The position numbers and the translations under genes were made by a program. Shown here piece by piece: positions 17,174 to 35,434 of a stretch of DNA of 64,000 nucleotides; position 1 is the stretch's first letter; every line of letters begins with the position of its first letter. The notes below the pieces were generated by a model that had not been told where the DNA came from, did no database searches, and was given only the letters and a program-made list of their open reading frames with translations. The DNA is from Flavobacteriales bacterium (GTDB taxonomy: Bacteria > Bacteroidota > Bacteroidia > Flavobacteriales_F > PHOS-HE28): NCBI GenBank assembly GCA_016703105.1, contig JADJCS010000020.1, positions 179,924-243,923 on the forward strand, in the 5' to 3' direction.

Positions 17174-19945
17174 ATGGACAAGTACTCCTACCTGAGCAAC
17201 GTCGACAGCGCATGGCTTGACGACCTGCACCAGCAATATCAGAAGGACCCCGCTAGCGTCGAGACCGGCTGGGCGCGCTTCTTCGAAGGCTTCGAGTTCG
17301 CCAAGTCGTTGGAGGGGGATGCGCCCTTGAGCGCTTCATCCGCAGCACCCGCACCCGGCAGCAACGAGCGCTTCGAGAAGGAATTCCGCGTGCTGGAGCT
17401 GATCAACGCTTATCGCACGCGCGGGCATCTCTTCACTCGCACCAACCCCGTCCGCGACCGCCGCAAGTACAGCCCAACGCTCGACCTGGTGAACCACGGC
17501 TTGAGCGATGCCGATCTGGACACCGTTTTCTCTGCGGGCAATGAGGTCGGTTTGGGTCCGGTGAAGCTGCGCGAGATCCTGGCTCTGTTGGAGCAGACCT
17601 ATTGCCAAAGCGTGGGTGTGGAGTTCAAGTTCATCCGCGACCCGGAGAAGTTGAAGTGGATGCAGGAGCGCATGGAAGGCTCGCGCAACACGCCGAACTT
17701 TTCACTCGACCAGAAGAAGGAGATCCTGGAGAAACTGAACGAGGCGGTCGTCTTCGAGAAGTTCCTCGGCAAGAAGTTCATCGGTGCCAAGCGCTTCAGC
17801 ATCGAAGGGGCCGAAGCGTTGATCCCAGCGTTGGACACGGTGATCGAGCACGGTGCGGAACTCGGCATCACGGAGTACGTGATCGGCATGGCCCATCGCG
17901 GTCGACTGAACGTACTGGCCAACACCTTGCGCAAGAGCTACGACCAGATCTTCAGCGAATTCGACGGCAAGGATTACGAGGACGCGTTGGTGGAGGGCGA
18001 TGTGAAATACCACATGGGCTACAGCAGCCTCGTGAAGACCAACACCGGCAAGGAAGTACGCCTCACGCTCGCACCCAACCCCAGCCACTTGGAAACGGTG
18101 GGTCCGATCATGCAGGGGATCTCACGGGCGATCATCGAGCATGACGACAACTTCGCCAAAGGCATCACCGCACCGATCCTCATCCACGGCGATGCCGCCG
18201 TGGCAGCGCAGGGTGTTGTTTACGAAGTGGTGCAGATGGCCGGGCTGAAGGCCTACGAGGTCGGCGGCACCATCCACATCGTGGTGAACAACCAGGTCGG
18301 CTTCACCACCAACTACATCGATGCGCGCACCAGCACGTATTGCACCGACGTGGCGAAGACCACGCTTTGTCCGGTGTTCCACGTCAACGGCGATGATGCG
18401 GAAGCGGTGGCCTACACCGTGAAGCTCGCGATGGATTTCCGGCAGAAGTACGGGCAGGATGTATGGGTGGATATCCTCTGCTACCGCAAGCACGGCCACA
18501 ACGAAGGCGATGAACCGAAGTTCACGCAACCCTTGCTGTACAAGGCGATCGCGGCGCACCCCGATCCGCGCGAGATCTACACGCAGAAGCTCATCGACAG
18601 CGGCGTGGAAGGGGCACGCGAGATGGCACAGGAGATGGAACGGTCGTTCACCGAGATGCTGGATGCCCGACTCACGGAAGCCAAGCAACAGCGTGTGGGC
18701 AAGATCACCAACTTCCTCGAGGAACGTTGGAAAGGCTTCGAGCGTGCGGAAGAAGGGGACTTTGCGAAGTCGCCGACCACTGGCGTGAAGATGGAGACGC
18801 TGAAATTGATCGGCGAAAAATTGAGCGCGATCCCCGAGGGGAAGAAGTTCTTCAGCAAACTGGAGAAGATCCTCGGCGACCGCAAACGTATGATGGCCGA
18901 GGAAACGCTGGACTGGAGCATGTGCGAACTGCTCGCGTACGGCTCATTGCTCGTGGAAGGACACCCTGTGCGGTTCACTGGTCAGGACGTGGAACGCGGC
19001 ACCTTCAGCCATCGCCATGCGGTGGTGCGCATGGAGGACAGCGAGGAGGAGTTCATCCACCTCAAGCACATCCAGGAGGGGCAGGCGCTGTTGCAGATCT
19101 ACAACTCACTGCTGAGCGAATACGCGGTGGTGGGCTTCGAGTACGGCTACGCGCTCACCAACCCGCAAACGCTCACCATCTGGGAAGCCCAGTTCGGCGA
19201 TTTCGTCAACGGCGCGCAGATCGTCCTCGATCAATACCTGTGCTGCGCCGAAGAGAAGTGGAATACGCAGAACGGCATTGTGCTCTTGCTTCCGCATGGC
19301 TACGAAGGCCAAGGCGCGGAGCACAGCAGCGCTCGCATGGAACGTTTCCTCCAGAGCTGTGCCGACGGCAACATGGTCGTGGTGAACTGCACCACACCGG
19401 CGAACTTCTTCCACGCGTTGCGCCGACAGCTCGCTTGGAACTTCCGCAAGCCGATGGTGGTCTTCACGCCGAAGAGCTTGTTGCGCCATCCGAAGTGCGT
19501 GAGCAAATTGGATGATCTGTCTAACTGTGGTTTCCAAGAGCTGATCGATGATGCCGGTGCCGATCCGAAGGATGTGAAGACCGTGATCTTCACCCAGGGC
19601 AAGATCCACTACGAGCTTGCGGAACACCGCGAGAAGAACGCCATCACCGATACCGCGCTCGTGCGCATCGAACAACTGCATCCGCTCCCTGCGGACCAGA
19701 TGCGCGCTGTGATCAAGAAGTACGCGAAGGCTGATCGCTACCTCTGGGTGCAGGAGGAGCCACTGAACATGGGCGCATGGAGCTACATGGCTATGCACTT
19801 CAATGATGTGAAGTGGGAGGTGATCGCACGTCCTGCGAGCGGCGCTCCCGCCACGGGCAGCAGCAAGCGTAGCGCGAACCAGCAGATCGCGATCATCGAG
19901 AAGGCGTTCAGCAAGTCAACATCCAACACCAAGGTGAAGGCGTAG
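17174..19945 (+). CDS. sucA: 2-oxoglutarate dehydrogenase E1 component
   Basis: 923 aa. 'RGHLFTRTNPV', 'GMAHRGRLNVLAN' (ThDP-binding) and 'FHVNGDDAEAV' are all characteristic of OGDH E1. Confidence 0.95.
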   Translation: MDKYSYLSNVDSAWLDDLHQQYQKDPASVETGWARFFEGFEFAKSLEGDAPLSASSAAPAPGSNERFEKEFRVLELINAYRTRGHLFTRTNPVRDRRKYSPTLDLVNHGLSDADLDTVFSAGNEVGLGPVKLREILALLEQTYCQSVGVEFKFIRDPEKLKWMQERMEGSRNTPNFSLDQKKEILEKLNEAVVFEKFLGKKFIGAKRFSIEGAEALIPALDTVIEHGAELGITEYVIGMAHRGRLNVLANTLRKSYDQIFSEFDGKDYEDALVEGDVKYHMGYSSLVKTNTGKEVRLTLAPNPSHLETVGPIMQGISRAIIEHDDNFAKGITAPILIHGDAAVAAQGVVYEVVQMAGLKAYEVGGTIHIVVNNQVGFTTNYIDARTSTYCTDVAKTTLCPVFHVNGDDAEAVAYTVKLAMDFRQKYGQDVWVDILCYRKHGHNEGDEPKFTQPLLYKAIAAHPDPREIYTQKLIDSGVEGAREMAQEMERSFTEMLDARLTEAKQQRVGKITNFLEERWKGFERAEEGDFAKSPTTGVKMETLKLIGEKLSAIPEGKKFFSKLEKILGDRKRMMAEETLDWSMCELLAYGSLLVEGHPVRFTGQDVERGTFSHRHAVVRMEDSEEEFIHLKHIQEGQALLQIYNSLLSEYAVVGFEYGYALTNPQTLTIWEAQFGDFVNGAQIVLDQYLCCAEEKWNTQNGIVLLLPHGYEGQGAEHSSARMERFLQSCADGNMVVVNCTTPANFFHALRRQLAWNFRKPMVVFTPKSLLRHPKCVSKLDDLSNCGFQELIDDAGADPKDVKTVIFTQGKIHYELAEHREKNAITDTALVRIEQLHPLPADQMRAVIKKYAKADRYLWVQEEPLNMGAWSYMAMHFNDVKWEVIARPASGAPATGSSKRSANQQIAIIEKAFSKSTSNTKVKA

Positions 19946-19990
19946 CCGCTCTTTCACTCTCGCACCCTTTCACTCTCTCACTCTCCCCCA

Positions 19991-20272
19991 ATGGCACTCA
20001 TCGACATCAAGGTTCCCAGTCCCGGCGAAAGCATCAGCGAAGTGCGCATTGCGCGTTGGCTCGTGAAGGACGGCGATGTGGTGAGCAAGGACCAGGTGCT
20101 CGGTGAGATCGACAGCGACAAGGCCACCTTGGAGTTGAGCGCTGAAGCCGAAGGCAAAGTGCAACTGCTCGCCAAGGAGGACCAGACCGTGAACGTCGGT
20201 GATGTGGTGGTGAGGATCGATACGGCTAACCGCTGCGCACGCTACCCCCGTAGCCAAGGCGATGCTCGATGA
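19991..20272 (+). CDS. sucB: Dihydrolipoyllysine-residue succinyltransferase (E2), N-terminal lipoyl domain fragment. The frame breaks near 20229-20232 and continues in ORF 20262..21131.
   Basis: Lipoyl domain '[35 protein letters not shown]'. The other frame, from ~20214, reads '[37 protein letters not shown]' (linker plus E3-binding domain). Confidence 0.8.
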
Positions 20273-21131
20273 CAAGGGCGTGAGCGCTGATAAAGTGAAG
20301 GGCAGTGGTCCCAACGGACGCATCACGAAGAGCGATGTCGCCGCTTATGTATCCGGTGGTGTGAGCGCCGATGCGATCGCCATGAACGGCTGGGGTGGAA
20401 AGCGCGACCAGAACCGCGTGAAGATGACCACGCTGCGCAAAAAGGTCGCTGAGCGCTTGGTCGCGGTGAAGAACCAGACCGCCATGCTCACCACCTTCAA
20501 CGAGGTGGACATGAGCGCTGTGATGACCCTGCGCGATAAGTACAAGGACAAGTTCAAGGAGCAGCACGGCGTGGGCCTCGGCTTCATGAGCTTCTTCACG
20601 AAGGCGGTTACCGAAGCGCTCCGCCTCTTCCCTCAAGTGAACGCGCACATCGACGGCGAGGAGATGATGATGCACGACTACGCCGACATCGGCATCGCGG
20701 TCAGCTCACCGAAAGGCCTGATGGTGCCCGTGGTGCGCAACGCCGAGAAGCTTTCGCTCGCGGAGATCGAATCGAAGATCAAGGAGCTCGCGGTGAAGGC
20801 CCGGGACGGCAAGCTCAGCATCGACGAGATGACCGGCGGCACCTTCACCATCACCAATGGTGGTGTGTTCGGCAGCATGCTCAGCACGCCGATCCTCAAT
20901 CCGCCGCAGAGCGCCATACTCGGCATGCACAACATCGTGGAGCGGCCCGTTGCTGTGAACGGCCAGGTCGTCATCCGCCCCATCATGTACGTAGCGCTCA
21001 GCTACGATCACCGCATCATCGACGGCAAGGAGAGCGTGAGCTTCCTGATGGCCGTGAAGCAGATGATCGAGGATCCGGACAAGATGGTCTTCGGCGGGAA
21101 GGATCCGGGGGAGGTGTTGTTGGGATTGTAG
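20262..21131 (+). CDS. sucB: E2 succinyltransferase, E3-binding plus catalytic domain (C-terminal 289 aa) of the frameshifted sucB
   Basis: Catalytic motif '[17 protein letters not shown]' (DHRxxDG active site); peripheral-subunit-binding domain at the N-terminus. Confidence 0.85.
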
Positions 21132-21203
21132 CGGCGATAGGGGACAGCCCATCTGTTGCTATCCGAGCGTTCCGTCGAGTTGCTCAAACGCACGGGCGAT
21201 CGA

Positions 21204-22328
21204 TCACCCTGCCACGCTCACGCCGACCAGCTTCCCGATGCCGAAGGTGACCGCCGCAGCGGCAAGGCCGAACAAGACCTGGCGCATACCGGAGAACCAG
21301 ACACCGCGCCCGGTGAATAGCGTGATGGCACTGCCGATGATGAACAATCCGGCCGCGCTCAATCCCAAGCTGATGAGGATGGCCAACATGCCACCCGTGA
21401 AGAAGAAGGGGATCACCGGAAGGATGGCACCCACCGCGAAGAGGAAGAAGGACGTGATGGCCGCTTCCCACGCCGAGCCCTTCAACTCCTCCGCATTGAT
21501 GCCCAGCTCTTCCTTCACCAAGAGCGCGTGCGCCTTGCCTTTGTCCGCGAGCGCCTCGCTGGCCAGTCGCTCGGACTCCGCTTCCGAAATGCCCTTCGCC
21601 ATGAAGATCAGCACGAGCTCCTTGCGCTCTCCTTCAGGGTTCGTTTCCAGTTCGGTCATCTCCAGCGCCATCTGTCGTTCGTAGAGTTCCTGCGAGCTCT
21701 TCACGCTGATCCACTCGCCGAGCGCCATGCTCAGCGCACCAGCGAGCAATCCGGCGAGGCCTGCCAACAACACGCCCTGATCACCGTCGGTCGCACCGGC
21801 AACACCCATCACCAGGCTCATGTTGCTCACCAGCCCGTCGTTGGCGCCGAGCACGGCTGCGCGCAGGGCGTTGCCACCCACGGTCTTGTGCTTGCCTTCT
21901 ATGCGGCCGAGTTCCTCTCCACCCATGCCGCGCTTGTTCGCCATCAGCGACTGCAGGATCAGCACGTGGTTGCGCTCCCCACCGCTCAAGGGGGTTCCGG
22001 TCTTCCGTTTCAACGATACGGTGGCCGACGCAAGGCCCTTCTCCACGTCCATGAGCTGGGCGATCACATGCCCGTAACCCATCCGCTTGCCGATGCGGTC
22101 GAGCATGCGCGCACGCCACGAAGGACCCGGTATTTCCTTCAGCGTCCCGTCCGCCTTCAATTGCGCGAAGGCATGTTCGGCATGACCGCGTTCGATGTCC
22201 GCCATTTCGCGGAAGAGCTTTGCCACTTGCCCGTCCTCCTCGTGGGCGGCGATGCGATCATAGAGGAAGGCCGCGTCCACTTCGGTGCGGAGACTTTCGA
22301 CGCGTAGGCGGAGCGATGGCGTGGACAT
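21204..22328 (-). CDS. MbfA-like iron transporter: N-terminal ferritin-like/erythrin domain fused to a VIT1/CCC1-family membrane domain
   Basis: 'ESLRTEVDAAFLYDRIA..EMADIERGHAEHAF' (ferritin-like), then 'ALRAAVLGANDGLVSNMSLVMGVAGA' and C-terminal TM helices typical of VIT1. Start taken at 'MSTPSLRL' (the track ORF extends to 22388). Confidence 0.8.
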   Translation of the reverse strand: MSTPSLRLRVESLRTEVDAAFLYDRIAAHEEDGQVAKLFREMADIERGHAEHAFAQLKADGTLKEIPGPSWRARMLDRIGKRMGYGHVIAQLMDVEKGLASATVSLKRKTGTPLSGGERNHVLILQSLMANKRGMGGEELGRIEGKHKTVGGNALRAAVLGANDGLVSNMSLVMGVAGATDGDQGVLLAGLAGLLAGALSMALGEWISVKSSQELYERQMALEMTELETNPEGERKELVLIFMAKGISEAESERLASEALADKGKAHALLVKEELGINAEELKGSAWEAAITSFFLFAVGAILPVIPFFFTGGMLAILISLGLSAAGLFIIGSAITLFTGRGVWFSGMRQVLFGLAAAAVTFGIGKLVGVSVAG

Positions 22329-22427
22329 GCGCACAAGGTCGGCAGGAATGTGCGGATCTCTGGCAGCGTGCCCATTCGAATGCGGCACTGACGATCGTCA
22401 CTACTTGACCCGCGTTGTGCACCTACT

Positions 22428-23027
22428 TTGACAAGCTGGTCAAAATTCAAAGGAGTGAAAGTGCCCTTGTTCATCAAGCATGTTCTCCCGTTCGCTGCGA
22501 TGTACGCGGTGATGGTGGCGGCGGCGATCCTTTTGGATCGCGGTCTGCACGCCATGGGGTTGGACCATGTGGGGCGTTATCTGGGCCCTGCGGGAACGGC
22601 GTTCATCGCGCTCTCGTTCGTGTATTCATTGCGCAAGCGGAAGATCATCCACTCCGGGCCACCCAGGACCTACCTCATGGTGCATGAGTATCTCGCTTGG
22701 GCCGGCTCGGTGATGATCCTGGTGCATGCCGGCATCCATTTCAACGCCCGCCTTCCCTGGCTGGCCACCTATATGCTACTGATCAGCGTGGCGAGCGGGC
22801 TTGTGGGCAAATACCTCCTGAAGAGCGCCGGTCATTCTTTGGAAGAACGACGACAGGAATTGATCGCGAGCGGATCTACCACCCCTGAAGTGGACAAGGA
22901 GCTCTTCTTCGATTCGGTGACGGTGAACGCCATGAAGCAATGGCGCGTGGTCCACCTGCCCATCGCGTTCACGCTGGGCTTCCTTACCCTGTTGCACGTG
23001 ATCACCGTCCTCATGTTCGGCAAATGA
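22428..23027 (+). CDS. Small polytopic membrane protein with conserved His residues (cytochrome-b-like/DUF4405-like module). Paralogous to the N-terminal part of 25019..25879. Start uncertain: TTG 22428, GTG 22461 after AGGAG, or ATG 22500.
   Basis: 5 predicted TM helices. Shared motifs with the paralog: 'Y..RKR', 'L..HE.L...G....L.H', 'SG.(V/I)G(K/R)(Y/F)', 'W.V.HLP.A'. The stop overlaps the start of the next cytochrome gene. Confidence 0.6.
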   Translation: MTSWSKFKGVKVPLFIKHVLPFAAMYAVMVAAAILLDRGLHAMGLDHVGRYLGPAGTAFIALSFVYSLRKRKIIHSGPPRTYLMVHEYLAWAGSVMILVHAGIHFNARLPWLATYMLLISVASGLVGKYLLKSAGHSLEERRQELIASGSTTPEVDKELFFDSVTVNAMKQWRVVHLPIAFTLGFLTLLHVITVLMFGK

Positions 23028-24040
23028 AGAAGGTCATCATCCTTGCCTTGATCGCGGCGTTCATCGGGCTGGTGTACCTGTTCCCGCACAGCATGCTCGA
23101 GCCCGGGGAACTGGTGGAAGGACACCAGAAGACCCGCGACAATTGTTTCTCCTGCCATCAGCCCTTCGGAGGTCTGCCCAATGCCAAGTGCATCGTCTGT
23201 CACACGGTTGGCGAGATCGGGAAGGATACACTGCTGAACACGGGACCGACGCTTTTCCATGAGGCGCTCAGCGGTATGGAGTGCGTGGAATGCCATAGCG
23301 AGCACATGGGGCGGAACGCGGACCTGACCATGGGCGGCTTCGAGCACGCACTGGTCCCAGCAGCCATAGTGGAGGACTGCAACCGTTGCCATGCGAAACC
23401 AACGGACGAACTGCACACGCCGCTGCCCAACAAATGCGCGGCCTGCCATGATACGCAGGGCTGGAAACCCGCACGCGAATTCGACCATTCCTTGCTGTCG
23501 GCAGCGAGTAAAAGCGATTGTGCGAGTTGCCACCAGCGCCCCACCGATACGCTACATGAACGCATGAAGGGCAATTGTGCCAGCTGCCACTCGACCACCG
23601 CATGGAAGCCCGCAACCTTCGATCATGCCGCTTTGTCCGCTGCGGAGAAGGACCATTGCGCAACCTGCCACCAACCGCCCAAGGATGCTTTCCACCAAGG
23701 CACCAAGGACAATTGCGCCAGTTGCCATGGCACGAACGCATGGTCGCCTTCCACGTTCGATCACTCGGCGTACTTCCGATTGGATGGCGACCACAACGCG
23801 AAGTGCGCCACCTGTCACCAAGCCAACAACTACGGCAGCTACACCTGCTACGGTTGCCACGAGCATACACCGGGCAATATCATCGGCGAGCACCAGGAAG
23901 AGGGGATCACGAACATCACCGACTGCGTGCGATGCCACCGCAGCGGTGATGAGGATGACATCCGCATGGATGGACGGTCCGGAAGCGAAGGCGGGGAAGG
24001 TGCCCGCAAAGGCCGTGATCGTGAAGGGGAGGACGATTGA
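23024..24040 (+). CDS. Multiheme c-type cytochrome, 12 CxxCH motifs in 338 aa, signal-anchored
   Basis: N-terminal TM/signal 'MKKVIILALIAAFIGLVYLF'. Twelve CxxCH (CFSCH, CIVCH, CVECH, CNRCH, CAACH, CASCH x3, CATCH x2, CYGCH, CVRCH) with repeated '(A/T)WKP.(T/R).FDH' spacing. Confidence 0.85.
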   Translation: MKKVIILALIAAFIGLVYLFPHSMLEPGELVEGHQKTRDNCFSCHQPFGGLPNAKCIVCHTVGEIGKDTLLNTGPTLFHEALSGMECVECHSEHMGRNADLTMGGFEHALVPAAIVEDCNRCHAKPTDELHTPLPNKCAACHDTQGWKPAREFDHSLLSAASKSDCASCHQRPTDTLHERMKGNCASCHSTTAWKPATFDHAALSAAEKDHCATCHQPPKDAFHQGTKDNCASCHGTNAWSPSTFDHSAYFRLDGDHNAKCATCHQANNYGSYTCYGCHEHTPGNIIGEHQEEGITNITDCVRCHRSGDEDDIRMDGRSGSEGGEGARKGRDREGEDD

Positions 24041-24058
24041 ACCGTGCCCCTGACCTGA

Positions 24059-24140
24059 CGGGCTTCCCGACGGCCGTGAAGCAGATGATCGAGGACCCCA
24101 GCAAGATGGTCTTCGGCGACATGGTGCCGGGGGATTGCAT
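24059..24140 (+). other. Non-coding remnant homologous to the 3' end of sucB (~80 nt, about 80-85% identity to 21040-21122), within a spurious ORF
   Basis: Translation '[21 protein letters not shown]' versus the sucB C-terminus '[21 protein letters not shown]'. At nucleotide level 'ggccgtgaagcagatgatcgagga' is identical in both. Confidence 0.55.
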
Positions 24141-24316
24141 TTCAGGTCGTAGGTCTTGGGTGGTTCTCTGCTGCTCGGAGGCATCGGGCAGCCCCTGTGT
24201 CCTTCCGGGGATCACATGTTCAGGGACCGATCCGTCCGGTTCCGTCGAAGGGAAATCCCGTTCGGGGGATATTGTCATGGAACTGCCATGGCTTGCTTCC
24301 TACCTTCGAGGCCGGT

Positions 24317-24703
24317 ATGAAGAACTTCGCGGCTTACCTCCTCATTCTCCATGTGCTGTTGAGCACTTGGGCGCCGGGCGGGCTTGCGGAGGTGGCACGC
24401 CTTCCTTCCCTTCAGAGCCATTACGCGGAGCACTTCCTGGAAAGCGGTGGCACCATGGGGTGGGGTGAGTTCCTGAAACTCCACTTCGCGGACCCGGAAC
24501 ATGAGCGCCAGGATGCGGACAGGCACAGTGCCTTGCCCTTCCATGGTCCTTCCATGGCCATGCACATGTTCCTGCCGCCGGCAGCATCGGCCAGTGCGAT
24601 ACCCGCCGTGGTGACCCCCCACGTCCGTCCTGGGACCCTAGCGGCCGAAGTGGGCCAGTGGCCCGGGCGATCGGTGTTCCATCCGCCCAAGTCGATCGGT
24701 TGA
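24317..24703 (+). CDS. Small His-rich exported/membrane-anchored protein (128 aa), paralog A of a pair ending in '...GQW.GRSVFHPPKSIG'
   Basis: N-terminal hydrophobic helix 'MKNFAAYLLILHVLLSTWA'. Motifs 'LQSHYAEHF', 'HFADPEHE', 'LPFHG' and a C-terminus identical to that of 38911..39300. Confidence 0.55.
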   Translation: MKNFAAYLLILHVLLSTWAPGGLAEVARLPSLQSHYAEHFLESGGTMGWGEFLKLHFADPEHERQDADRHSALPFHGPSMAMHMFLPPAASASAIPAVVTPHVRPGTLAAEVGQWPGRSVFHPPKSIG

Positions 24704-25018
24704 GGCGCGTGGGCAGGAACCCCCTGCCGCGCGGACAAGAGCCACTGCTGCTCGGCGGGTTCTTGAACAGTCGTCAACCGTCAATTCCAGTTCATGCGGA
24801 CCCTTGGGGCCATAGTCTTCAACATCATCTTGCTGCAACGCTGGTCCATGGCGATCATTCCGGTGCACTCGGCGAATATCTGCGATCTGGCGCCATGAGA
24901 GGTCGGACCTTCCCCCATATCCCGGCGTATGATGTTCGTTGTGTGGGCCGCATCGGATGCATGTGCATCGTAGCGTCATATTGGGAACGACTGAACCTAC
25001 CGGCTTGACAGGACATTC

Positions 25019-25879
25019 ATGACGCGCACCACCCACACCCTCTTCATCGGAACCATGTCGGCCATCGTCGTCGTGGTGACCGTGTATCTCTCGTACGTCG
25101 GCTGGTCCTACTACCAATTGCCGCTGGAGGAGCGATTCTATCACCCGCAGCACAACTGGTTCAAGCCGAGCGGCGCCTACGGCCATGGCATCGGTATCCT
25201 CGGCACCTTCCTCATCTTGTTCGGTGTGGTGATCTACATCGCGCGCAAACGCTACAACTTCATGACGAAGCAGCTCCGGCTGAAGTACCTGCTGGAGTTC
25301 CACATTTTCCTCTGCACGCTGGGGCCGATCCTCATCCTCTTCCACACGGCCTTCAAATTCGGCGGACTGGTCTCAGTGGCGTTCTGGAGCATGGTGGCCG
25401 TGGTTGCCAGCGGCGTCATCGGGCGCTTCATCTACATCCAGATACCGCGCACCGTGGAGGGTCGCGAACTCAGCCTGAACGAGGTGAAGGGTATGCGAGC
25501 CAAACTGGTCGAGAACCTGAAGCAGAGCGTTGGCCTCGACGAGCAACTGATCCCGTTGATCGTCGGCACCACGGACGGCGAGGGTGCTGCCGCAAAGCGC
25601 AGATCGTTCATTTCCAGGTACCTCGATGAACGCAAGGCCGTCGGTGTGATCCGGTCATCCTTGAAGGCGAAGAACATGGCGCGTGAGGAGCAGGCATCCA
25701 TCATCCGCATGGTGAAAGAAGAGTTCGCCTTGTCCCACCGGATCGGTCGATTGCTCACCATGCAGAAACTGTTCAAGTACTGGCATGTGGCGCACCTGCC
25801 CTTCGCGTTGATCATGCTCATCGTGCTCATCATACACGTGGCCGTTACGTTGTCCTTCGGATACAAGTGGATCTTCTGA
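25019..25879 (+). CDS. Polytopic membrane protein: cytochrome-b-like module (paralog of 22428..23027) with an inserted ~110-aa cytoplasmic segment and a final TM helix
   Basis: Aligns with 22428..23027 ('ARKRYNF', 'LLEFHIFLCTLGPILILFHT', 'ASGVIGRFI', 'WHVAHLPFAL'). Its stop overlaps the next start (TGATG). Confidence 0.7.
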   Translation: MTRTTHTLFIGTMSAIVVVVTVYLSYVGWSYYQLPLEERFYHPQHNWFKPSGAYGHGIGILGTFLILFGVVIYIARKRYNFMTKQLRLKYLLEFHIFLCTLGPILILFHTAFKFGGLVSVAFWSMVAVVASGVIGRFIYIQIPRTVEGRELSLNEVKGMRAKLVENLKQSVGLDEQLIPLIVGTTDGEGAAAKRRSFISRYLDERKAVGVIRSSLKAKNMAREEQASIIRMVKEEFALSHRIGRLLTMQKLFKYWHVAHLPFALIMLIVLIIHVAVTLSFGYKWIF

Positions 25880-27210
25880 TGGAAGTGCTGATCGAACAAA
25901 TAGCGATCTACGGTTCGGTGCTCCTGCTCTGCGGGCTCACCATCTTCTTCTACATGCGCAGCCTCAAAAAGAAGTCCGCGATCGTGGAGAAGAAAGTGGC
26001 CAAGGCCAAGGAGGAAGGCATGTTCGAGCCGGTATCGCTGCATCCGTACATCGACCTGAACACCTGCATCGGTAGTGCAGCGTGCGTGGCCGACTGTCCG
26101 GAAAAGGACATCCTCGGCATCGTGGACGGCAAGGCCACGGTGATCCTCGCCAGCAACTGCGTGGGCCATGGCGCTTGCTTCCACGCCTGCCCGGTGCAGG
26201 CCATCTCCCTGCGCATCGGCACCGAGACGCGCGGCATCGATCTGCCGCACGTGGATCAGACTTTCGAGACCAACATCAAAGGGATCTACATCGCGGGGGA
26301 GCTCGGCGGCATGGGTTTGATCAGGAATGGTGTGGAACAGGGTAAGCAGGCCATGGCGAATATCGCGAGCGCCAAGAAGCCCAGGGCCGAAGGCGTGCTC
26401 GATGTGGTGATCATCGGCGCCGGACCGGCCGGTATCTCGGCCACGTTGGAAGCGAAAAAGCAAGGCTTGACCAGCGCCACGTTGGAGCAGGATTCGCTCG
26501 GCGGCACCGTGTACACGTTCCCACGCTCCAAGCTCGTGATGACCTCACCGATGGACCTTCCATTGCATGGCAAGGTGAAGTTGTACGACACCACGAAGGA
26601 TGAACTGCTCCAGCTCTGGCGGAAGGTGATCAGTGAGCACAAGATCGAGATCACCGAGAACACGAAAGTGGATGCCATCGTGCCACAGAAGGACGGGACG
26701 TTCAAGCTGTCCACCAACGTGGGCAAGGACTATATCTGCAACAATGTTCTGTTGGCCATCGGCCGCCGCGGAACACCAAGAAAATTGGGCATACCCGGCG
26801 AAGAGTCGACCAAGGTGGCCTACCGGTTATTGGAACCCGAGAACATCGCTGGCAAGAAAGTCGTGGTTGTGGGCGGTGGTGATGCCGGTGTGGAATCCGC
26901 GATGCTGCTGATGAACGACAATGAAGTGCTCTTGGTCAATCGCAACGAGAATTTCGCGGGTATCAAACCCAAGAACCGTGAAGCAGTGACCGCAGCCATC
27001 GATGCCGGGAAAATGAAGGCGGTCTACAAGGCCAACTTGGTATCCATAGCACCGGAATCCGTGTTGTGCAAAGTGGGTGAAGACACGCAGCAACTGCCGA
27101 ACGACCTCGTGTACATTTTCGCTGGTGGTGAACTCCCTACCGGCTTCTTGCAGAAGGCCGGCATTGAGATCACAAAACGGTTCGGACATATCGTGAAGAA
27201 GCACACGTGA
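25879..27210 (+). CDS. Membrane-anchored FeS-flavoprotein: N-terminal TM helix, 2x ferredoxin-like cluster motifs, and a thioredoxin-reductase-like FAD/NAD(P)-binding pyridine nucleotide-disulfide oxidoreductase domain
   Basis: TM 'IAIYGSVLLLCGLTIFFYM'. 'CIGSAACVADCP' and 'CVGHGACFHACP' (non-canonical Cx2(S/H)x2Cx3CP). Two Rossmann motifs 'VVIIGAGPAGISA' and 'VVVVGGGDAGVESA'. Confidence 0.85.
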   Translation: MEVLIEQIAIYGSVLLLCGLTIFFYMRSLKKKSAIVEKKVAKAKEEGMFEPVSLHPYIDLNTCIGSAACVADCPEKDILGIVDGKATVILASNCVGHGACFHACPVQAISLRIGTETRGIDLPHVDQTFETNIKGIYIAGELGGMGLIRNGVEQGKQAMANIASAKKPRAEGVLDVVIIGAGPAGISATLEAKKQGLTSATLEQDSLGGTVYTFPRSKLVMTSPMDLPLHGKVKLYDTTKDELLQLWRKVISEHKIEITENTKVDAIVPQKDGTFKLSTNVGKDYICNNVLLAIGRRGTPRKLGIPGEESTKVAYRLLEPENIAGKKVVVVGGGDAGVESAMLLMNDNEVLLVNRNENFAGIKPKNREAVTAAIDAGKMKAVYKANLVSIAPESVLCKVGEDTQQLPNDLVYIFAGGELPTGFLQKAGIEITKRFGHIVKKHT

Positions 27211-28829
27211 GATCCCTCGCGACATACCTGTTCGTTGTGCTATCGCTGGTGGCGATGACAAGTCGTGCGCAATTGTCGCCGGGGGATCTGACCACCGCGC
27301 ATGCCAACTTGGAGGGCATGAGCAACTGCACGCAGTGCCACGATCTGGGCAACAAGGTGACGAACGCCAAGTGCCTGGAGTGCCATAAGGAGATCAAGTC
27401 GCTCATCACGCAGAAAAAGGGCTACCACGCAAGCAAGGACGTGAAGGCGAAGGATTGCTTCACCTGCCACAGCGAGCACCATGGACGGAAGTTCGAGATG
27501 GTGCGCTTCGATGAGAAGACGTTCGATCACGGGTTGACGGGCTATGCCCTCACCGGCGCGCACAAGCCCGTTGACTGCCGCGAATGCCACCTACCGGACA
27601 ACATCGCGGACAAGGAGTTGAAGAAGCGGGACAAGACCTTCCTCGGCCTGGACCAGAAGTGCCTTTCCTGTCACGACGACTTCCATCAGAGCACGATGGA
27701 CAAGGATTGCCTGAAGTGCCATACCATGACGGCATGGAAGCCGGCCAGCGTGTTCGATCACGACAAGACCGATTTCCCGCTCAAGGGAAAGCACATCCCT
27801 GTGGATTGCAAGGAATGTCACGCCATCACCACCAAGAACGGCAAGCAGTTCCAAGCGTTCGGCGATGTGCCCCACACGGATTGCAAGGCGTGCCACGATG
27901 ATCCGCACAACGCGCACTTCACCAACGCTTGCGCCCAGTGCCACACGGAGAACGCCTTCTCGACCTTCGCAGGGAAGGACCGCTTCGACCACAACACCAC
28001 GCCGTTCAAGTTGAACGGCAAGCACAAGACCACCGATTGCTTTGAATGCCACAAGCGCACCAGCGATCCGCTAACGGTCTTCCAGGACCGGGCCGGGGTG
28101 GCGATGAACCAATGTGCCACGTGCCACAAGGACCAGCACGATGGGAAGTTCGGCACGGACTGCGCGAAGTGCCACCAGGAGAAAGGCTGGGTCGCCGTGA
28201 AGTCGATGGACTTCTTCGATCACAGTGTCACCGACTTCCCATTGCAGGGAAAGCACGTTGACGTGGATTGCAAGAAGTGTCACAAAGGGCGGTACACCGA
28301 TCCGATCGTTTTCGTGGCGTGCAATAGCTGCCATGCTGACTTCCACAAAGGCGAGTTCGCTGAGAACGGTGTGTCGCCGGATTGCGTGGAGTGCCACTTC
28401 CTCACCGATGGGTTCGATGTGAGCATGTATTCCTTGGAGCAGCACGCCACAACGAAATTCCCGCTGGACGGGGCGCATGTGGCCACACCCTGCTCCGAAT
28501 GCCATTTGAACGAGAAATGGAAGAAAGGTGCCGAGAATTCGACCGGAGAGAAGTGGAAATTCCGCGAACTGGCAATGGCCTGCGCTGATTGCCACGACAA
28601 CGTGCACGGTGAAGAGTTCGCACAGTCAGGTATTACGGATTGCAAGCGTTGCCACGTTACCGGCGACTGGTTCCCCAGCTTGTTCGATCATACCAAGACG
28701 GCTTTTCCGCTGGAAGGTGAACACAAGACCGTGGATTGCCGGGAGTGCCACAAGAACCCTGCGGAGGGCAATGAGAAATTGGGGTCGTTCAAGATCGCGA
28801 AGTACCAATGCATAGACTGCCACAAATAG
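27207..28829 (+). CDS. Multiheme c-type cytochrome, 20 CxxCH motifs in 540 aa (GTG start overlapping the upstream stop)
   Basis: Signal peptide 'MRSLATYLFVVLSLVAMTSRAQ'. 20 CxxCH, about one per 27 aa, with a recurring 'FDH...FPL.G.H..V.C..CH' unit. Confidence 0.9.
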   Translation: MRSLATYLFVVLSLVAMTSRAQLSPGDLTTAHANLEGMSNCTQCHDLGNKVTNAKCLECHKEIKSLITQKKGYHASKDVKAKDCFTCHSEHHGRKFEMVRFDEKTFDHGLTGYALTGAHKPVDCRECHLPDNIADKELKKRDKTFLGLDQKCLSCHDDFHQSTMDKDCLKCHTMTAWKPASVFDHDKTDFPLKGKHIPVDCKECHAITTKNGKQFQAFGDVPHTDCKACHDDPHNAHFTNACAQCHTENAFSTFAGKDRFDHNTTPFKLNGKHKTTDCFECHKRTSDPLTVFQDRAGVAMNQCATCHKDQHDGKFGTDCAKCHQEKGWVAVKSMDFFDHSVTDFPLQGKHVDVDCKKCHKGRYTDPIVFVACNSCHADFHKGEFAENGVSPDCVECHFLTDGFDVSMYSLEQHATTKFPLDGAHVATPCSECHLNEKWKKGAENSTGEKWKFRELAMACADCHDNVHGEEFAQSGITDCKRCHVTGDWFPSLFDHTKTAFPLEGEHKTVDCRECHKNPAEGNEKLGSFKIAKYQCIDCHK

Positions 28830-31531
28830 GGGCCCTCCTGCTGGTAGCTGTGCGGTTGAACGCGCAGTCGCCGCACGGCGAAGCCATGAAAATGGATTGC
28901 GCCCAGTGCCATGTACCGGCGGATTGGACGAGCATTTCGGACAGCATTCCGTTCGACCATGATCTGACGCGCTATCCGCTCGTAGGCACTCACGCACAGG
29001 TGGAGTGCAAGGCGTGCCACACAACGCTCGTCTTCGATGAGGCTCCCGACCAGTGCAGTGCCTGCCACACCGATATGCACGGCATGACCGTTGGCGATGA
29101 TTGTGCACGCTGCCACACACCCCGGAATTGGTTGGTTGATGCGATCCCTGAACTGCATGAGGAGAACGGGTTCCCCTTGATCGGTGCGCATGGCAATTTG
29201 AGCTGTGTGGACTGCCACACCTCGGAGACCGCGTTACGCTTTGACCGAATTGGCAATGACTGCATAAGTTGCCATGCGGATGATCTCCGGGCCACCCGGC
29301 ATCCGGACCACATCATGGCCGGATTTTCGGACGATTGCATCCAGTGCCATGATCCGTTGGGCTCTGGTTGGAACACGGAGATCGTCGATCACGACTTCTT
29401 CCCTCTCATTTTAGGGCACGCCATTTCCGACTGCGACCAGTGCCACACGGGAGGTTCTTTCTCCACCTCCTCGTCGGAGTGCGTCAGTTGCCACCAGAAC
29501 GACTTCTCAGGCACCGCCAACCCGGACCATACGGTTGCGGGATTCTCAACGGACTGCGCCACATGCCATACTATAAGCCCAGGGTGGACACCCGTGACCT
29601 ATGATCACAGTGGCTATCCATTGATCGGTGCGCACGCGTTGGTGCATGATTGTGACCAATGCCACAACGGCAATTACAACAACACGCCGAACACCTGCGA
29701 GGGCTGCCACCTGGCGGACTACAACGGCAGTGTCAACCCCAACCACACCGCTGCTGGCTTTTCCACGGATTGCGCGCAATGCCATGACGAGACGGCGTGG
29801 TCGCCGTCCGGTTATGATCACAACGGCTACCCACTGGTCGGGGCGCATACCACCGCAAGTTGCGATCAATGCCACAACGGCAATTACAACAACACGCCGA
29901 ACACCTGCGAGGGCTGCCACCTGGCGGACTACAATGGCAGTGCCAACCCCAACCACGCCGCTGCTGGCTTTTCCATGGATTGCGCGCAATGCCATGACGA
30001 GACGGCGTGGTCGCCGTCCGGCTATGATCACAACGGCTACCCGTTGGTCGGGGCGCATACCACCGCAAGTTGCGATCAATGCCACAACGGCAATTACAAC
30101 AACACGCCGAACACCTGCGAGGGCTGCCACCTGGCGGACTACAATGGCACCACCGCCCCGAACCACACTTCCGCACAGTTCACCACGGACTGCACGCAAT
30201 GCCACGACGAAGCGGCGTGGTCGCCGTCCTCATACGATCATGCGACCACGGGTTTCCCACTTACCGGCGGCCATGTCGGCGTTGACTGCGCGCAATGCCA
30301 CTCCAACGGTTACCAGGGTACACCGATCAACTGTGATGCCTGCCACATGCCGGACTACAATGGCACCACCAACCCGAACCATGCGGCGGCCCAGTTCCCT
30401 ACGGATTGCACGATCTGTCACGATGAGACCGCCTGGGGGAACTCGACCTTTGATCATGGCACGACCAGCTTCCCGTTGACCGGGGGCCACTCCGGCGTTG
30501 CCTGTACGCAATGCCATTCCAATGGGTACCAGGGTACACCGACCAACTGTGATGCCTGCCACATGCCGGACTACAATGGCACCACCGACCCGAACCATGC
30601 GGCGGCCCAGTTCCCCTCGGATTGCACGCAATGCCACGATGAGACAGCTTGGATCCCATCGAGCTATGACCACAACGGTTACCCACTGATGGGGTCGCAC
30701 GCCACGGTCAGCTGCGACCAATGTCACAATGGCAACTACAACAATACACCGAGCACATGCGACGGATGTCACATGCCGGACTATAACGGGACGACCAACC
30801 CGGACCATGCCGCAGCTCAGTTCCCTGTGGATTGTGCACTATGCCACGATGAGACGGCCTGGAACAATTCGACCTTCGATCATAGTACGACCGATTTTCC
30901 CCTGACAGGTGGCCATGCGGGCGTCAACTGCATCGCCTGCCATTCCAATGGCTATCAGAGTATACCGACCAACTGCGATGCCTGCCATATGCCGGATTAC
31001 AATGGCACCACCAACCCGGACCATGCCGCTGCCCAATTCCCCACCGACTGTGCGCAATGCCACAATGAAACTTCCTGGACCCCTTCTACGTTCGATCATA
31101 GCGCGACGGGCTTTGCGCTGACCGGAGGGCATGCGGGCGCGAGTTGTCTCCAGTGCCATTCCAACGGCTATCAAGGCACGCCGACGGATTGTGATGCGTG
31201 CCACATGGCGGATTTCAACGCCACCACCAACCCGGACCACCAGGCAGCCCAGTTCCCCACGGATTGCGCCCAGTGCCACAGTATATCGGCATGGTCGCCT
31301 TCCACGTTCGATCACGACGGGATGTACTTCCCGATCTATAGTGGAACGCACAACGGGGAGTGGAACACGTGCGTTGAATGCCACACCGACCCGAACGACT
31401 ATAGTGTGTTCAGTTGCATCGATTGCCATGAGCACGACGACCAAGCCCAGGTCGACAATGATCATAGCGGGGAGAACGGGTATTCGTACAACAGTGCCGC
31501 CTGCTTCAATTGCCATCCCAATGGGAATTGA
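28808..31531 (+). CDS. Giant multiheme c-type cytochrome, 37 CxxCH motifs in 907 aa; polymer of ~70-aa triheme (cytochrome-c7-like) modules
   Basis: Signal peptide 'MHRLPQIGALLLVAVRLNA'. 37 CxxCH counted. Repeated unit 'GYPLVGAH...CDQCHNGNYNNTP.TCEGCH.ADYNG..NPNH.AAGFS.DCAQCHDETAWSPS.YDHN'. Confidence 0.9.
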   Translation: MHRLPQIGALLLVAVRLNAQSPHGEAMKMDCAQCHVPADWTSISDSIPFDHDLTRYPLVGTHAQVECKACHTTLVFDEAPDQCSACHTDMHGMTVGDDCARCHTPRNWLVDAIPELHEENGFPLIGAHGNLSCVDCHTSETALRFDRIGNDCISCHADDLRATRHPDHIMAGFSDDCIQCHDPLGSGWNTEIVDHDFFPLILGHAISDCDQCHTGGSFSTSSSECVSCHQNDFSGTANPDHTVAGFSTDCATCHTISPGWTPVTYDHSGYPLIGAHALVHDCDQCHNGNYNNTPNTCEGCHLADYNGSVNPNHTAAGFSTDCAQCHDETAWSPSGYDHNGYPLVGAHTTASCDQCHNGNYNNTPNTCEGCHLADYNGSANPNHAAAGFSMDCAQCHDETAWSPSGYDHNGYPLVGAHTTASCDQCHNGNYNNTPNTCEGCHLADYNGTTAPNHTSAQFTTDCTQCHDEAAWSPSSYDHATTGFPLTGGHVGVDCAQCHSNGYQGTPINCDACHMPDYNGTTNPNHAAAQFPTDCTICHDETAWGNSTFDHGTTSFPLTGGHSGVACTQCHSNGYQGTPTNCDACHMPDYNGTTDPNHAAAQFPSDCTQCHDETAWIPSSYDHNGYPLMGSHATVSCDQCHNGNYNNTPSTCDGCHMPDYNGTTNPDHAAAQFPVDCALCHDETAWNNSTFDHSTTDFPLTGGHAGVNCIACHSNGYQSIPTNCDACHMPDYNGTTNPDHAAAQFPTDCAQCHNETSWTPSTFDHSATGFALTGGHAGASCLQCHSNGYQGTPTDCDACHMADFNATTNPDHQAAQFPTDCAQCHSISAWSPSTFDHDGMYFPIYSGTHNGEWNTCVECHTDPNDYSVFSCIDCHEHDDQAQVDNDHSGENGYSYNSAACFNCHPNGN
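29657..30150 (+). repeat. In-frame tandem DNA repeat, period 210 nt, ~2.4 copies at ~97-98% identity, inside the 37-heme cytochrome gene
   Basis: 'caatgccacaacggcaattacaacaacacgccgaacacctgcgagggctgccacctggcggactacaa' recurs at ~29657, ~29867 and ~30077. Confidence 0.85.
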
Positions 31532-31559
31532 ACGTACGACGCGGATCCGCAGCAAGGCC

Positions 31560-33029
31560 ATGGGACCATGGTTGCGAGGGATCTGTGTAGCGTTCCTTTC
31601 GGCCGTCGGGATGGTCCCGATCAATGTCCTGGCGCAATCGCCGCACGGCGAGGCGATGAAGATCGATTGTGCCGCATGCCACGTACCTGACGGTTGGAGC
31701 GCCATGCGGGACTCGCTGACGTTCGATCACGGGCAGACCCATTTTCCATTGATAGGCGTCCATGACCAGGTGGACTGCAGGTCCTGCCACGCTTCATTGG
31801 TCTTCAGTGAGGCCCCGCCGGACGATTGCATTTCGTGCCACACGGATGTACACAGTATGTCCGTGGGTGACGATTGTGCCCGGTGCCATACGCCGGTGAG
31901 CTGGCTGGTCGACGACATACCTGAGCTGCACGAGCAGAACGGGTTCGCTTTGGTCGGGGTGCATAGCAATTTGAGCTGTGTGGATTGTCACATTTCGGAC
32001 AACGGCAACACATTCATCAGGCTTGGCAATGATTGCATCAATTGCCACCAAGCGGATTACCTCGCCACCAAGAGCCCTGATCATATGTTGGCGGGATTCT
32101 CCGCGAACTGCGTGGAGTGCCATGATCCACTTGGCTTCGGCTGGGCGACCGATCTCGTTGACCACGATTTCTTTCCGCTCACTCTGGGGCACGACATCGG
32201 TGATTGCGCGCGCTGCCATACCACCGGCGATCTCTCGGCCGTATCGCCCGAATGCGTGAGCTGCCATCAGCAGGACTACAACAGCACAACGAACCCGAAC
32301 CACGCGGCTTCCGGATTCTCCACCGATTGCGCCTCCTGCCATACGACCGATCCGGGGTGGACACCAGCGACGTTCGATCACGATGCACAGTTCTTCCCCA
32401 TCTACAGCGGATCGCACAACGGCCAATGGAGCGCGTGCACGGACTGCCACACGAACCCCAATGACTTCTCGGTGTTCACATGCACCGGATGCCACGTGAA
32501 CCCCCAGACCGACGGCGACCACAATGGCATGCCCGGTTATGTCTATGAGAGCAATGCCTGCCTGGCCTGCCACCCGAACGGGGATGCCTTCGGCTTTGAC
32601 CACAACACCACCGATTTCCCCCTCCAAGGGGGTCACGTCGGCGTTAACTGCACCGAGTGCCACGCGAATGGCTATGCGGGCACGCCCACCAACTGCGACG
32701 CGTGCCACATGGACGATTACAACGGCACCACCAACCCGAACCATAGCGGCGCCCAGTTCCCCACGGATTGCGCGCAATGCCACAATGAAACCGCGTGGAC
32801 CCCGGCCAACTTCGATCACGACAACCAGTACTTCCCGATCTATAGCGGGAACCACAACGGCGAATGGAACACCTGTTCTAGTTGCCACACCAACAGCAAC
32901 GACTACAGTGTCTTCAGCTGCATTATCTGCCACGACGACGAGGCACAATTAGCCGACGATCACAGCGGTGAGAACGGATACGCGTTCAACAGCAATGCAT
33001 GCTTCTCATGCCATCCCAGCGGGAACTAG
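31560..33029 (+). CDS. Multiheme c-type cytochrome, 19 CxxCH motifs in 489 aa; paralog of the 37-heme protein with shared N- and C-terminal modules
   Basis: Start at the in-frame ATG just after the upstream stop. Signal peptide 'MGPWLRGICVAFLSAVGMVPINVLAQSPHGEAMKIDCAACH' parallels '..AQSPHGEAMKMDCAQCH' of the upstream gene. The C-terminal '..YSVFSCIICHDDEAQLADDHSGENGYAFNSNACFSCHPSGN' is also shared. Confidence 0.85.
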   Translation: MGPWLRGICVAFLSAVGMVPINVLAQSPHGEAMKIDCAACHVPDGWSAMRDSLTFDHGQTHFPLIGVHDQVDCRSCHASLVFSEAPPDDCISCHTDVHSMSVGDDCARCHTPVSWLVDDIPELHEQNGFALVGVHSNLSCVDCHISDNGNTFIRLGNDCINCHQADYLATKSPDHMLAGFSANCVECHDPLGFGWATDLVDHDFFPLTLGHDIGDCARCHTTGDLSAVSPECVSCHQQDYNSTTNPNHAASGFSTDCASCHTTDPGWTPATFDHDAQFFPIYSGSHNGQWSACTDCHTNPNDFSVFTCTGCHVNPQTDGDHNGMPGYVYESNACLACHPNGDAFGFDHNTTDFPLQGGHVGVNCTECHANGYAGTPTNCDACHMDDYNGTTNPNHSGAQFPTDCAQCHNETAWTPANFDHDNQYFPIYSGNHNGEWNTCSSCHTNSNDYSVFSCIICHDDEAQLADDHSGENGYAFNSNACFSCHPSGN

Positions 33030-33031
33030 CG

Positions 33032-34630: not shown

Positions 34631-34631
34631 G

Positions 34632-35414: not shown

Positions 35415-35434
35415 GCGCTGGTACCGGGCATCGA

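Follow-up and report, generated by a model that had tools for sequence, protein, structure and literature searches.

Two described systems come closest to the locus reported here. In E. coli K-12, prophage e14 occupies icd, and, as presented in PMC13626634 (citing Hill et al. 1989), a replacement 3' end keeps the gene functional, the original C-terminal icd fragment persists as the pseudogene icdC at the far end of e14, and recombination between icd and icdC can delete the insert and give a chimeric tail. For the T6SS effector-immunity modules of Vibrio cholerae and for Rhs loci, PMC5361080 (which cites de Vries & Wackernagel 2002, Prudhomme et al. 2002 and Jackson et al. 2009) describes recombination with a homologous upstream anchor and an illegitimate other end, by which the displaced resident 3' end moves downstream and is kept in an array as an orphan fragment. 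PMC5361080, the references in it and PMC3240628 record such one-sided recombination, with the displaced 3' fragments that result, in natural transformation and at T6SS and Rhs loci.

The locus downstream of sucB, the E2 gene, in a Flavobacteriales bacterium resembles both. As in icd/icdC (e14, phage 21), the 3' end of a TCA-cycle gene appears to have been hit, the gene is reconstituted and the old end lies on the far side, and as in the C-terminal displacement at T6SS and Rhs loci there is one homologous and one non-homologous boundary, with an orphan 3' fragment that is retained and decaying. Unlike e14, the event at the sucB tail appears ancient and is common to several genera; unlike the polymorphic toxin loci, with their recurrent adaptive displacement and orphan arrays, it left a single orphan of a housekeeping gene, and no sign of selection on this sucB fragment was seen. 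The locus is also similar to variable regions flanked by core genes, as the content downstream of sucB differs among relatives and sucAB is mosaic, a likeness that is drawn from about 10 loci. The window, meaning the whole stretch of 64,000 nucleotides that was analysed, contains the following features.

17174-19945: sucA, upstream of sucB.
19991-21131: sucB, with its stop at 21129-21131 (Pfam 2-oxoacid_dh, E 2.7e-86).
21040-21131, plus strand: functional sucB 3' end, comprising the last 30 codons and the stop; left repeat copy (family D12), with the tail allele termed alpha below.
21050-21073, plus strand: 24-nt core shared by the two repeat copies; second copy at 24072-24095.
21204-22328, minus strand: mbfA-like gene of the erythrin/VIT1 iron exporter family, called at 374 aa in relatives.
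22428-23027, plus strand: conserved ORF of 175-199 aa, termed the small membrane ORF, with no Pfam or NCBIfam hit.
23024-24040, plus strand: 12-heme c-type cytochrome, 338 aa (Pfam Cytochrom_CIII, c3_2, C7).
24041-24061, plus strand: spacer of 21 nt, ending at the putative illegitimate joint 24061/24062.
24062-24152, plus strand: psi-sucB-3', the apparent relic of a sucB tail of the type termed beta below (the remnant); strong at 24062-24134, weak from there to the pseudo-stop TAG at 24150-24152.
24153-24316, plus strand: intergenic DNA that would originally have lain 3' of the displaced sucB stop, with a conserved motif at about 24272-24316.
24317-24703, plus strand: secreted-looking protein of 128 aa, first gene of the multiheme cytochrome cluster; homologues P0121-P0131.
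25019-25879, 25867-27210, 27207-33029 and through to ResB/CcsA at 35435-38596: rest of the cytochrome cluster, from Pfam hits and the ORF list.

A sequence-only reading of this DNA had noted that about 80 nt at 24059-24140 repeat the sucB 3' end, and formal alignment bears this out. The stretches 21040-21112 and 24062-24134 align without gaps over 73 nt with 62/73 identities (84.9%), at a spacing of 3,022 nt, and when the remnant region was compared with the whole window by blastn this match had an E value of 1.5e-18, the runner-up one of 0.1. The 24-nt core that had been singled out, GGCCGTGAAGCAGATGATCGAGGA, is indeed present exactly twice in the window and was matched 0 times in 100 shuffles with up to 3 mismatches tolerated, and the in-frame translation offered for the copy is correct and does parallel the E2 C-terminus. 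In nearly all sucB relatives the core is invariant, and an identical run of 24 nt is unremarkable at 85% identity over 73 nt, with an estimated probability of about 0.17. When one 1-nt gap is allowed, weak similarity runs on to the pseudo-stop (GTAG, 24149-24152), and we put the length of the presumed sucB relic at about 92 nt, of which 73 nt (24062-24134) form the strong part. Homology to sucB ends abruptly at 24061/24062, where the upstream side is the 3' flank of the 12-heme gene. Direct repeats of the sucB 3' end are thereby observed on both sides of the mbfA/cytochrome block. A third copy of the sucB tail was sought at 52.3-52.6 kb, the far end of a region of about 31.5 kb that is absent from L001, and none was found there; the idea of a 31-kb island was dropped, L001 being too distant, at about 55% identity in neighbouring proteins. 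Scans of genomes and metagenomes with the catalytic domain of SucB, in which the matches listed had at most 81% identity, served for L001 synteny only.

The gene content of the block agrees with the sequence-only reading in two of its genes. The mbfA-like product matches Pfam VIT1 (E 2.8e-65) and Rubrerythrin (E 8e-5), in keeping with the MbfA gene that had been named; its ORF is open as far as 22388, and the protein has 94% amino acid identity to that of L174 and 91% to that of L181. The translation of the 12-heme cytochrome gene, likewise named before, holds twelve CXXCH motifs when counted, and the gene, which overlaps the preceding ORF at an ATGA, probably has its true start at 23024; a gene of 336-338 aa is called at this locus in relatives. 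For the ORF in between, which is 87% identical in amino acids to its counterparts in both L174 and L181, the description as cytochrome-b-like is not supported by Pfam or NCBIfam, which give no hit. The hits of these two libraries to the block ORFs are confined to VIT1/Rubrerythrin and multiheme cytochrome families, with one ORF left without a hit. Between the 12-heme gene and the 128-aa ORF lie 276 nt of intergenic DNA that contain the remnant. The motif at about 24272-24316 stands ahead of the gene that leads the cytochrome cluster; L181 and L178 share it, and its counterpart in L174 lies upstream of the 286-aa gene. The 128-aa ORF is followed in order by a 286-aa membrane protein, an Fe-S/FAD oxidoreductase, several large multiheme cytochromes and the ResB/CcsA cytochrome-maturation fusion.

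A Pfam search of 21-52.6 kb of the window found no integrase or transposase family, as the sequence-only reading had stated, and no tRNA lies between 21 and 52.6 kb. Integrases and transposases are also lacking within +/-10 kb of the L171, L174 and L181 loci, and between the repeats no recombinase is present in the window block or in its counterparts in L174 and L181. A compositional difference of the block, which had been proposed as a check, is absent: its GC content is 0.608 vs 0.606 for the window, and its GC3 values of 0.73-0.81 resemble those of neighbouring genes, 0.71-0.86.

An exact-protein look-up with the 286-aa protein led to conspecific MAGs and to contigs from wastewater, in which the gene order is the same. 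Seven conspecific MAGs from NCBI (L161-L167; GCA_0167..., GCA_963853175), with 97-99.5% nucleotide identity, represent activated-sludge Flavobacteriales, their SucB proteins being named as from Flavobacteriales bacteria, and both repeat copies are at the same positions in 7/7 of them. A protein search with the catalytic part of SucB returned relatives graded from 99% down to 88% identity. In the SucA tree these are arranged as ((window,(L171,L172)),L173,L176),(L174,L175) with L001 as outgroup, and L181 groups with L174 and L175. For most pairs of lineages, identity between neighbouring backbone proteins is only 50-65%, and the compared lineages are judged to be roughly genus-level relatives.

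The states observed after sucB vary from lineage to lineage. In L171 (SucB 96%), sucB is followed by 537 nt, then by genes for 128, 499, 285 and 443 aa and by cytochromes, and the block is missing. In L172 (SucB 95%), 18 nt separate sucB from an unrelated 167-aa gene, after which come the 284-aa and 443-aa genes and cytochromes, with neither block nor remnant. L173 and L176 (SucB 93-94%) have other genes after sucB and neither block nor remnant, and L175 (SucB 91%) has YidC there. L174 (SucB 93%) has sucB, mbfA, a 190-aa ORF, the 12-heme gene, 429 nt and then the 286-aa gene onward; the 128-aa gene is absent and a remnant is not detectable, local alignments in the intergenic region being no better than those of shuffles. 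In L181 the order is sucB, mbfA, 190-aa ORF and 12-heme gene, followed by the 128-aa, 589-aa and 284-aa genes onward. Taken by lineage, sucB is followed by the mbfA/cytochrome block, the 167-aa gene, YidC, an AAA_21/DUF3696 gene, or DUF4197 or a giant adhesin. The cluster led by the 128-aa gene also occurs elsewhere than at sucB, after a WG_beta_rep gene in L178 and L179 and after a NuoG-like gene in L182, and in none of these three is a remnant present upstream of the 128-aa gene; L179 and L173 belong to the same assembly.

Whether sucB runs straight into the region at 24.2 kb in related genomes had been put forward as a comparison, and the outcome is partial: L171 and L172 join sucB to that region without the block, but neither is an exact empty site, and a genome with sucB directly followed by a 160-nt spacer and the 128-aa gene, without remnant, was not among the loci examined. 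The sequence-only reading had further been staked on block-less relatives retaining a remnant. Here the lineages disagree, as L171 is block-less with a remnant, L172 lacks both and L174 shows the opposite combination to L171.

The junction, consisting of the 12-heme stop, a spacer of about 21 nt and the start of the sucB-tail copy, is shared by the window, the seven conspecific MAGs, L171 and L181. In the 537-nt gap of L171, 18 nt from the end of the 12-heme ORF, stop codon included (GAAGGGGAGGACGATTGA), are followed by a spacer of about 20 nt and then by the sucB-tail remnant through the old stop, …GATCGAGGACCCCAGCAAGATGGTCTTCGGCAACAAGGAGCCGGGG-AGGTGCTGTTGGGGTTGTAG, after which GTCT(T/C)GG is common to the window and L171. 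In addition, L171 has a 40-nt relic that matches window positions 22886-22926 in the membrane ORF (score 22, shuffle maximum 16). As L171 keeps both the end of the 12-heme gene and a relic of the membrane ORF, the block was once present there and was later deleted. L181 retains the block together with stop and spacer, and of the remnant it has the first ~13 nt (GCTTCCGAACGAG), the rest having been replaced. In P0122, a sister species seen as protein only, whose 128-aa part is 86% identical, the remnant is translated in frame as the start of a spurious N-terminal extension. The pattern of decay observed among these copies differs by lineage: the window reads ...GDMVPGD, L171 reads ...GNKEPG and has a 1-nt deletion, P0122 reads KRMIEDPKKMYFA, and L181 retains only the ~13 nt mentioned. 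All this indicates that the junction goes back to a single event and was then inherited or recombined onward, eroding differently in at least four lineages. The event is also old, and neither recent nor strain-specific, as the junction spans lineages with backbone proteins 50-65% identical.

Two alleles of the sucB tail are found in the group, designated alpha (GGKDPGE) and beta (GNKEPGE/Q), the latter with the pattern DP[S/N]KMVFG[G/N]KEPG[E/Q]VLLGL. The functional tail in the window is alpha and the remnants are beta, an allele that occurs in block-less relatives. The remnant is 90% identical (66/73) to the sucB tail of L172 and 89% to those of L176 and L173, and its identity to its own sucB (85%) and to that of L174 (82%) is below that to the tails of these block-less relatives; the tail of the L171 remnant is almost the same as the L176 tail, L176 and L173 having the GNKEPG allele. 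In the last 92 nt of sucB, the window differs from the clade-II lineages L174, L175 and L181 at 1-2 positions, compared with about 11-12 expected from the preceding 658 nt. This deficit has a binomial P of 3e-5 to 7e-4 and is not seen in other pairs, and clade-informative sites along sucA-sucB are of clade-I type up to the tail. Taken at face value, the clade-I sucAB body would have obtained an alpha tail near the start of the duplicated segment, and the old beta tail would have been displaced. That the alpha tail begins approximately where the duplication begins is as predicted by a crossover inside the homology of ~92 nt.

Several observations limit how far these affinities can be followed. 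In the conspecific L167, at least 31 nt of beta sequence interrupt an otherwise identical alpha tail, from which it follows that tail alleles move by short-patch conversion, and as such exchange happens within one species, tail-allele affinities are weak markers of the original event. The intergenic region between sucB and mbfA is 35-67% identical between the window and L174/L181, compared with 98-99% in the tail, and the tail identity to L174/L181 may stem from a separate, later conversion. Sliding-window identity along sucAB shows that the closest relative of the window switches repeatedly, and L174 is itself a mosaic, its mbfA being window-like and its membrane ORF and cytochrome L181-like. 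Because the locus is heavily mosaic, neither informative sites nor sliding-window identity settle which side was incoming.

With chances that we place slightly above even, the remnant is the fossil of a sucB tail that preceded recombination, and a block of ~3.0 kb came in from a related Flavobacteriales; the direction of the event, with the block incoming, and its mechanism are what we infer. In this scenario the ancestor would have had sucB, then ~160 nt, then the multiheme-cytochrome cluster led by the 128-aa gene, and the donor would have been a related Flavobacteriales genome in which mbfA, the small membrane ORF and the 12-heme cytochrome natively follow sucB. A donor segment of ~3.0 kb would have recombined into the last ~92 nt of the resident sucB, supplying its own sucB tail, which left sucB intact, and moving the resident tail downstream by 3,022 nt. 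On one side the exchange would have used the sucB-tail homology, and the other side (24061/24062) would be an illegitimate joint. The simplest route would be a Campbell-type single crossover with a circularised 3,022-bp fragment, or the equivalent homology-facilitated illegitimate recombination. Such a circularised fragment would run from -92 in the sucB tail through the stop and the 72-nt intergenic region, then across mbfA, the membrane ORF and the 12-heme gene into 21 nt of flank, and no dedicated integrase would be required. The joint would later have been inherited or spread by homologous recombination among lineages, with lineage-specific erosion. The part of the sequence-only reading that saw an insertion footprint at the sucB 3' end stands as far as a displaced copy, an intact sucB tail and a joint at the far end of the block are concerned. 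Its further claim, that 21132-24058 is the inserted segment, remains the best reading but meets a serious rival in the mirror direction, for which L174, L178/L179 and L182 speak.

According to that rival, which we hold to be unlikely but worth weighing closely, sucB-mbfA-ORF-12-heme was the resident order and the cytochrome-cluster DNA arrived together with a piece of donor sucB. A linear donor fragment would have started 92 nt before the donor sucB stop, making the remnant donor DNA; its left end would have been joined illegitimately 21 nt past the 12-heme stop and its right end by homology in shared cluster genes. This requires a single illegitimate end-join and makes a circular intermediate unnecessary. 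L174, with sucB, the block and the 286-aa gene and with neither remnant nor 128-aa gene, fits such a resident, as does the mobility of the 128-aa-led cluster among loci (L178/L179, L182), and the promoter-like conserved motif precedes the 286-aa gene in L174 and the 128-aa gene elsewhere. Against this direction, however, the sucAB body of the window and of L171 is of clade I, yet is followed by an alpha (clade-II-like) tail from about the start of the duplication, and L174 is explained equally well as a deletion derivative of an L181-like locus. For the block-incoming reading, the remnant-free order sucB-block-286-aa of L174 is a possible donor-type arrangement, although here too L174 may alternatively be such a deletion derivative. 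L181, of clade II, also has the junction, which weakens L174 as a pristine donor type. Whichever the direction, a single homologous exchange is needed along with a single illegitimate joint at 24061/24062. On our best reading, ordinary homologous and illegitimate recombination among related Flavobacteriales suffices, and no mobile element or att site is indicated.

Integration of a site-specific element, whose attP would mimic the sucB 3' end, whose attL and attR would be the two copies and whose integrase would have been lost or would act in trans, is quite improbable. The arrangement has the appearance expected of one, with direct repeats of a gene 3' end bordering the insert, a reconstituted gene, an exact 24-nt core between diverged arms that could be a crossover site, and a region downstream of sucB that varies among relatives like an insertion hot spot. 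However, the core is the stretch of sucB that is best conserved across all relatives, where a chance run is plausible, and the tail that came in would be an ordinary allele from the sucB of related genomes and no specialised mimic. Unlike e14, a prophage with integrase, excisionase and a defined att core, the insert here measures 3 kb, carries ordinary metabolic genes of host-like composition and has no recombinase, and in L174 the block adjoins sucB without a second copy of the putative att site. As integrases, recombinases and transposases are absent from the block, from 21-52.6 kb and from all homologous loci, the block is not classed as an integrative element.

A broader proposal, which we regard as improbable, is that the last ~90 nt of sucB are a recurrent docking site for the exchange of accessory cassettes in activated-sludge Flavobacteriales. 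The persistence of alpha and beta tails across genera and within one species would fit a docking site, as would the short-patch exchange of tails, the downstream DNA that differs in almost every lineage, and the fossil, as the scar of one such exchange. If true, with a trans-acting recombinase or a cis-acting hot spot, a TCA-cycle gene would hold an integrase-less cassette-exchange site. As it stands, the remnant is a new example of a known, ordinary genome scar and no new system or mechanism. The scar is nevertheless datable, and would record how a metal-homeostasis/electron-transfer block (mbfA and the 12-heme gene) became linked to a multiheme cluster beside sucAB, at a locus of uncultured activated-sludge Flavobacteriales whose shuffling among genera appears to be the work of homologous and illegitimate recombination, with no part played by a mobile element. 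It could be of use in tracing the spread of multiheme-cytochrome capacity, and possibly of extracellular electron transfer, in Bacteroidota, and the false N-terminal extension that the fossil gives to the neighbouring gene in P0122 is a caution to annotators.

Compared codon by codon with the functional tail, the remnant shows 7 non-synonymous and 2 synonymous changes and is therefore free of E2-type constraint, and 24062-24152 is regarded as a non-functional fossil, a decaying pseudogene fragment. That the remnant has instead been exapted as a selected non-coding element, for instance a terminator or 3' UTR of the 12-heme operon or a 5' regulatory part of the cluster, is very improbable. In favour of exaptation, a stretch of 31 nt is identical in the window and L171 remnants within a region otherwise ~76% identical, which makes it somewhat more conserved than neutral decay predicts and leaves weak constraint on the remnant possible. 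A weak terminator-like hairpin is predicted at 24110-24133, and the L171 remnant has a fold z-score of -2.3 with a predicted structure that differs from that of the window. Against it, the window remnant has a fold z-score of -0.7 and the hairpin alone one of 0.0, Rfam at E <= 1 gave nothing relevant for the remnant, and in a terminator/promoter scan of the remnant region the terminator count was no higher than in shuffles. As the element is nearly gone in L181 and absent from L174, L172, L178 and L182, all of which keep the same flanking operons, it is dispensable.

Chance similarity or an assembly artefact, such as a chimeric join in a nanopore MAG, is barely conceivable: at least one suspicious lesion in the same assembly, a 95-nt deletion in the sucB linker at 20226/20227, might raise the thought, but the E value is that of 1.5e-18 given above, the junction occurs in two genera-level lineages from different samples, and the presence of both copies in seven independent assemblies excludes an assembly artefact. 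The frameshift in the linker that goes with this lesion is unrelated to the tail. The SucB tail in the window is identical to those of conspecific MAGs and relatives whose SucB is intact at 411 aa.

Compared with the loci of roughly genus-level relatives L171–L176, sucA and sucB of the window (17174–21131) form a mosaic; for example, window 18560–19155 shows 90–93% identity to L173 versus 70–83% to all others. Between lineages that share only 50–65% identity in the adjacent genes, SucA identity is 84–92%. These sequence comparisons indicate that homologous recombination between lineages is frequent at the sucAB locus. The last 92 nt of sucB (window 21040–21131) are 98–99% identical to those of the clade-II genomes L174, L175, and L181, the 658 nt preceding this tail differ by 12–13% between the window and the same three genomes, and the intergenic region following sucB is only 35–67% identical. 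A comparable deficit of differences in the tail was absent from other genome pairs. The near-identical tails suggest that the window and clade II may have shared an allele recently and that this sharing would be limited to the tail. Of the two allelic forms of the tail, alpha and beta, the functional tail of the window is alpha, and a beta-type patch of at least 31 nt was detected in one conspecific strain, L167 (GCA_016707365.1), with otherwise identical flanks. This patch is a case of within-species short-patch recombination inside the sucB tail. Features of sucB and of the DNA downstream of it are as follows.

L167 6022–6113, corresponding to window 21074–21104: beta patch, reading DPNK..GNKEPGE, a pattern as in L176
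Window 20226–20228: site in the sucB linker, which separates the lipoyl and E3-binding domains, at which 95 nt are missing
Window 24317–38596: large multiheme-cytochrome locus of this Flavobacteriales MAG
Window 28808–31531: gene for the 907-aa cytochrome, with internal tandem repeats of a period of about 210–216 nt
Window 52597 to beyond 62000: giant, repeat-rich surface-protein gene with a PKD-like domain
L001 (distant outgroup) 11220 onward: giant PKD-like surface-protein gene

The DNA following sucB differs among the genomes. In L176/L177 (11597–13065), a gene for an AAA_21/AAA_15/DUF3696 ATPase and a small ORF lie immediately after sucB; the pairing looks like a defence system and is a further sign of a variable cassette site downstream of sucB. 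The giant surface-protein gene is located immediately 3' of sucB in L001 and 31.5 kb further downstream in the window.

Besides cytochromes of 540, 907, and 632 aa, the multiheme-cytochrome cluster encodes a 128-aa secreted protein, a 286-aa membrane protein, an Fe-S/FAD oxidoreductase, and a ResB/CcsA fusion. As it occurs in three different contexts among relatives, namely beside sucB, after a WG_beta_rep gene (L178/L179), and after a NuoG-like gene (L182), the cluster appears to be a transferable module. In several lineages, a conserved motif, TTGTCATGGAACTGCCATGG…ACCTTCGAGGCCGG(T/A)ATG, precedes the first gene of the cluster, independently of which gene leads. This motif may be a promoter, operator, or 5' leader of the cluster. 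It was located at the following positions.

Window 24272–24316
L181, about 6385–6425
L178, about 9950–10000
L174, about 14385–14440

The repeat copies of the 907-aa cytochrome are 73–92% identical and each contains heme-binding motifs. Gene calls over this region vary between conspecific MAGs, suggesting repeat-number or assembly variation.

P0122, a homologue of the 128-aa protein from a sister species, comes from a Logan contig of 1,930 nt, on which gene calling joined the decayed copy of the sucB tail, KRMIEDPKKMYFA, to the 128-aa ORF. The resulting 196-aa 'protein' is an annotation artefact caused by this remnant.

The 95 nt missing from sucB of the window are present in the conspecific MAGs L162–L167, in which SucB is intact (411 aa). 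Their absence from the window places the lipoyl domain (19991–20272) out of frame with the catalytic part (20262–21131), and reflects either an error in the assembly of long-read MAGs or a genuine inactivating deletion. In another conspecific locus, L161, a lesion of another kind is found at this position of the linker.
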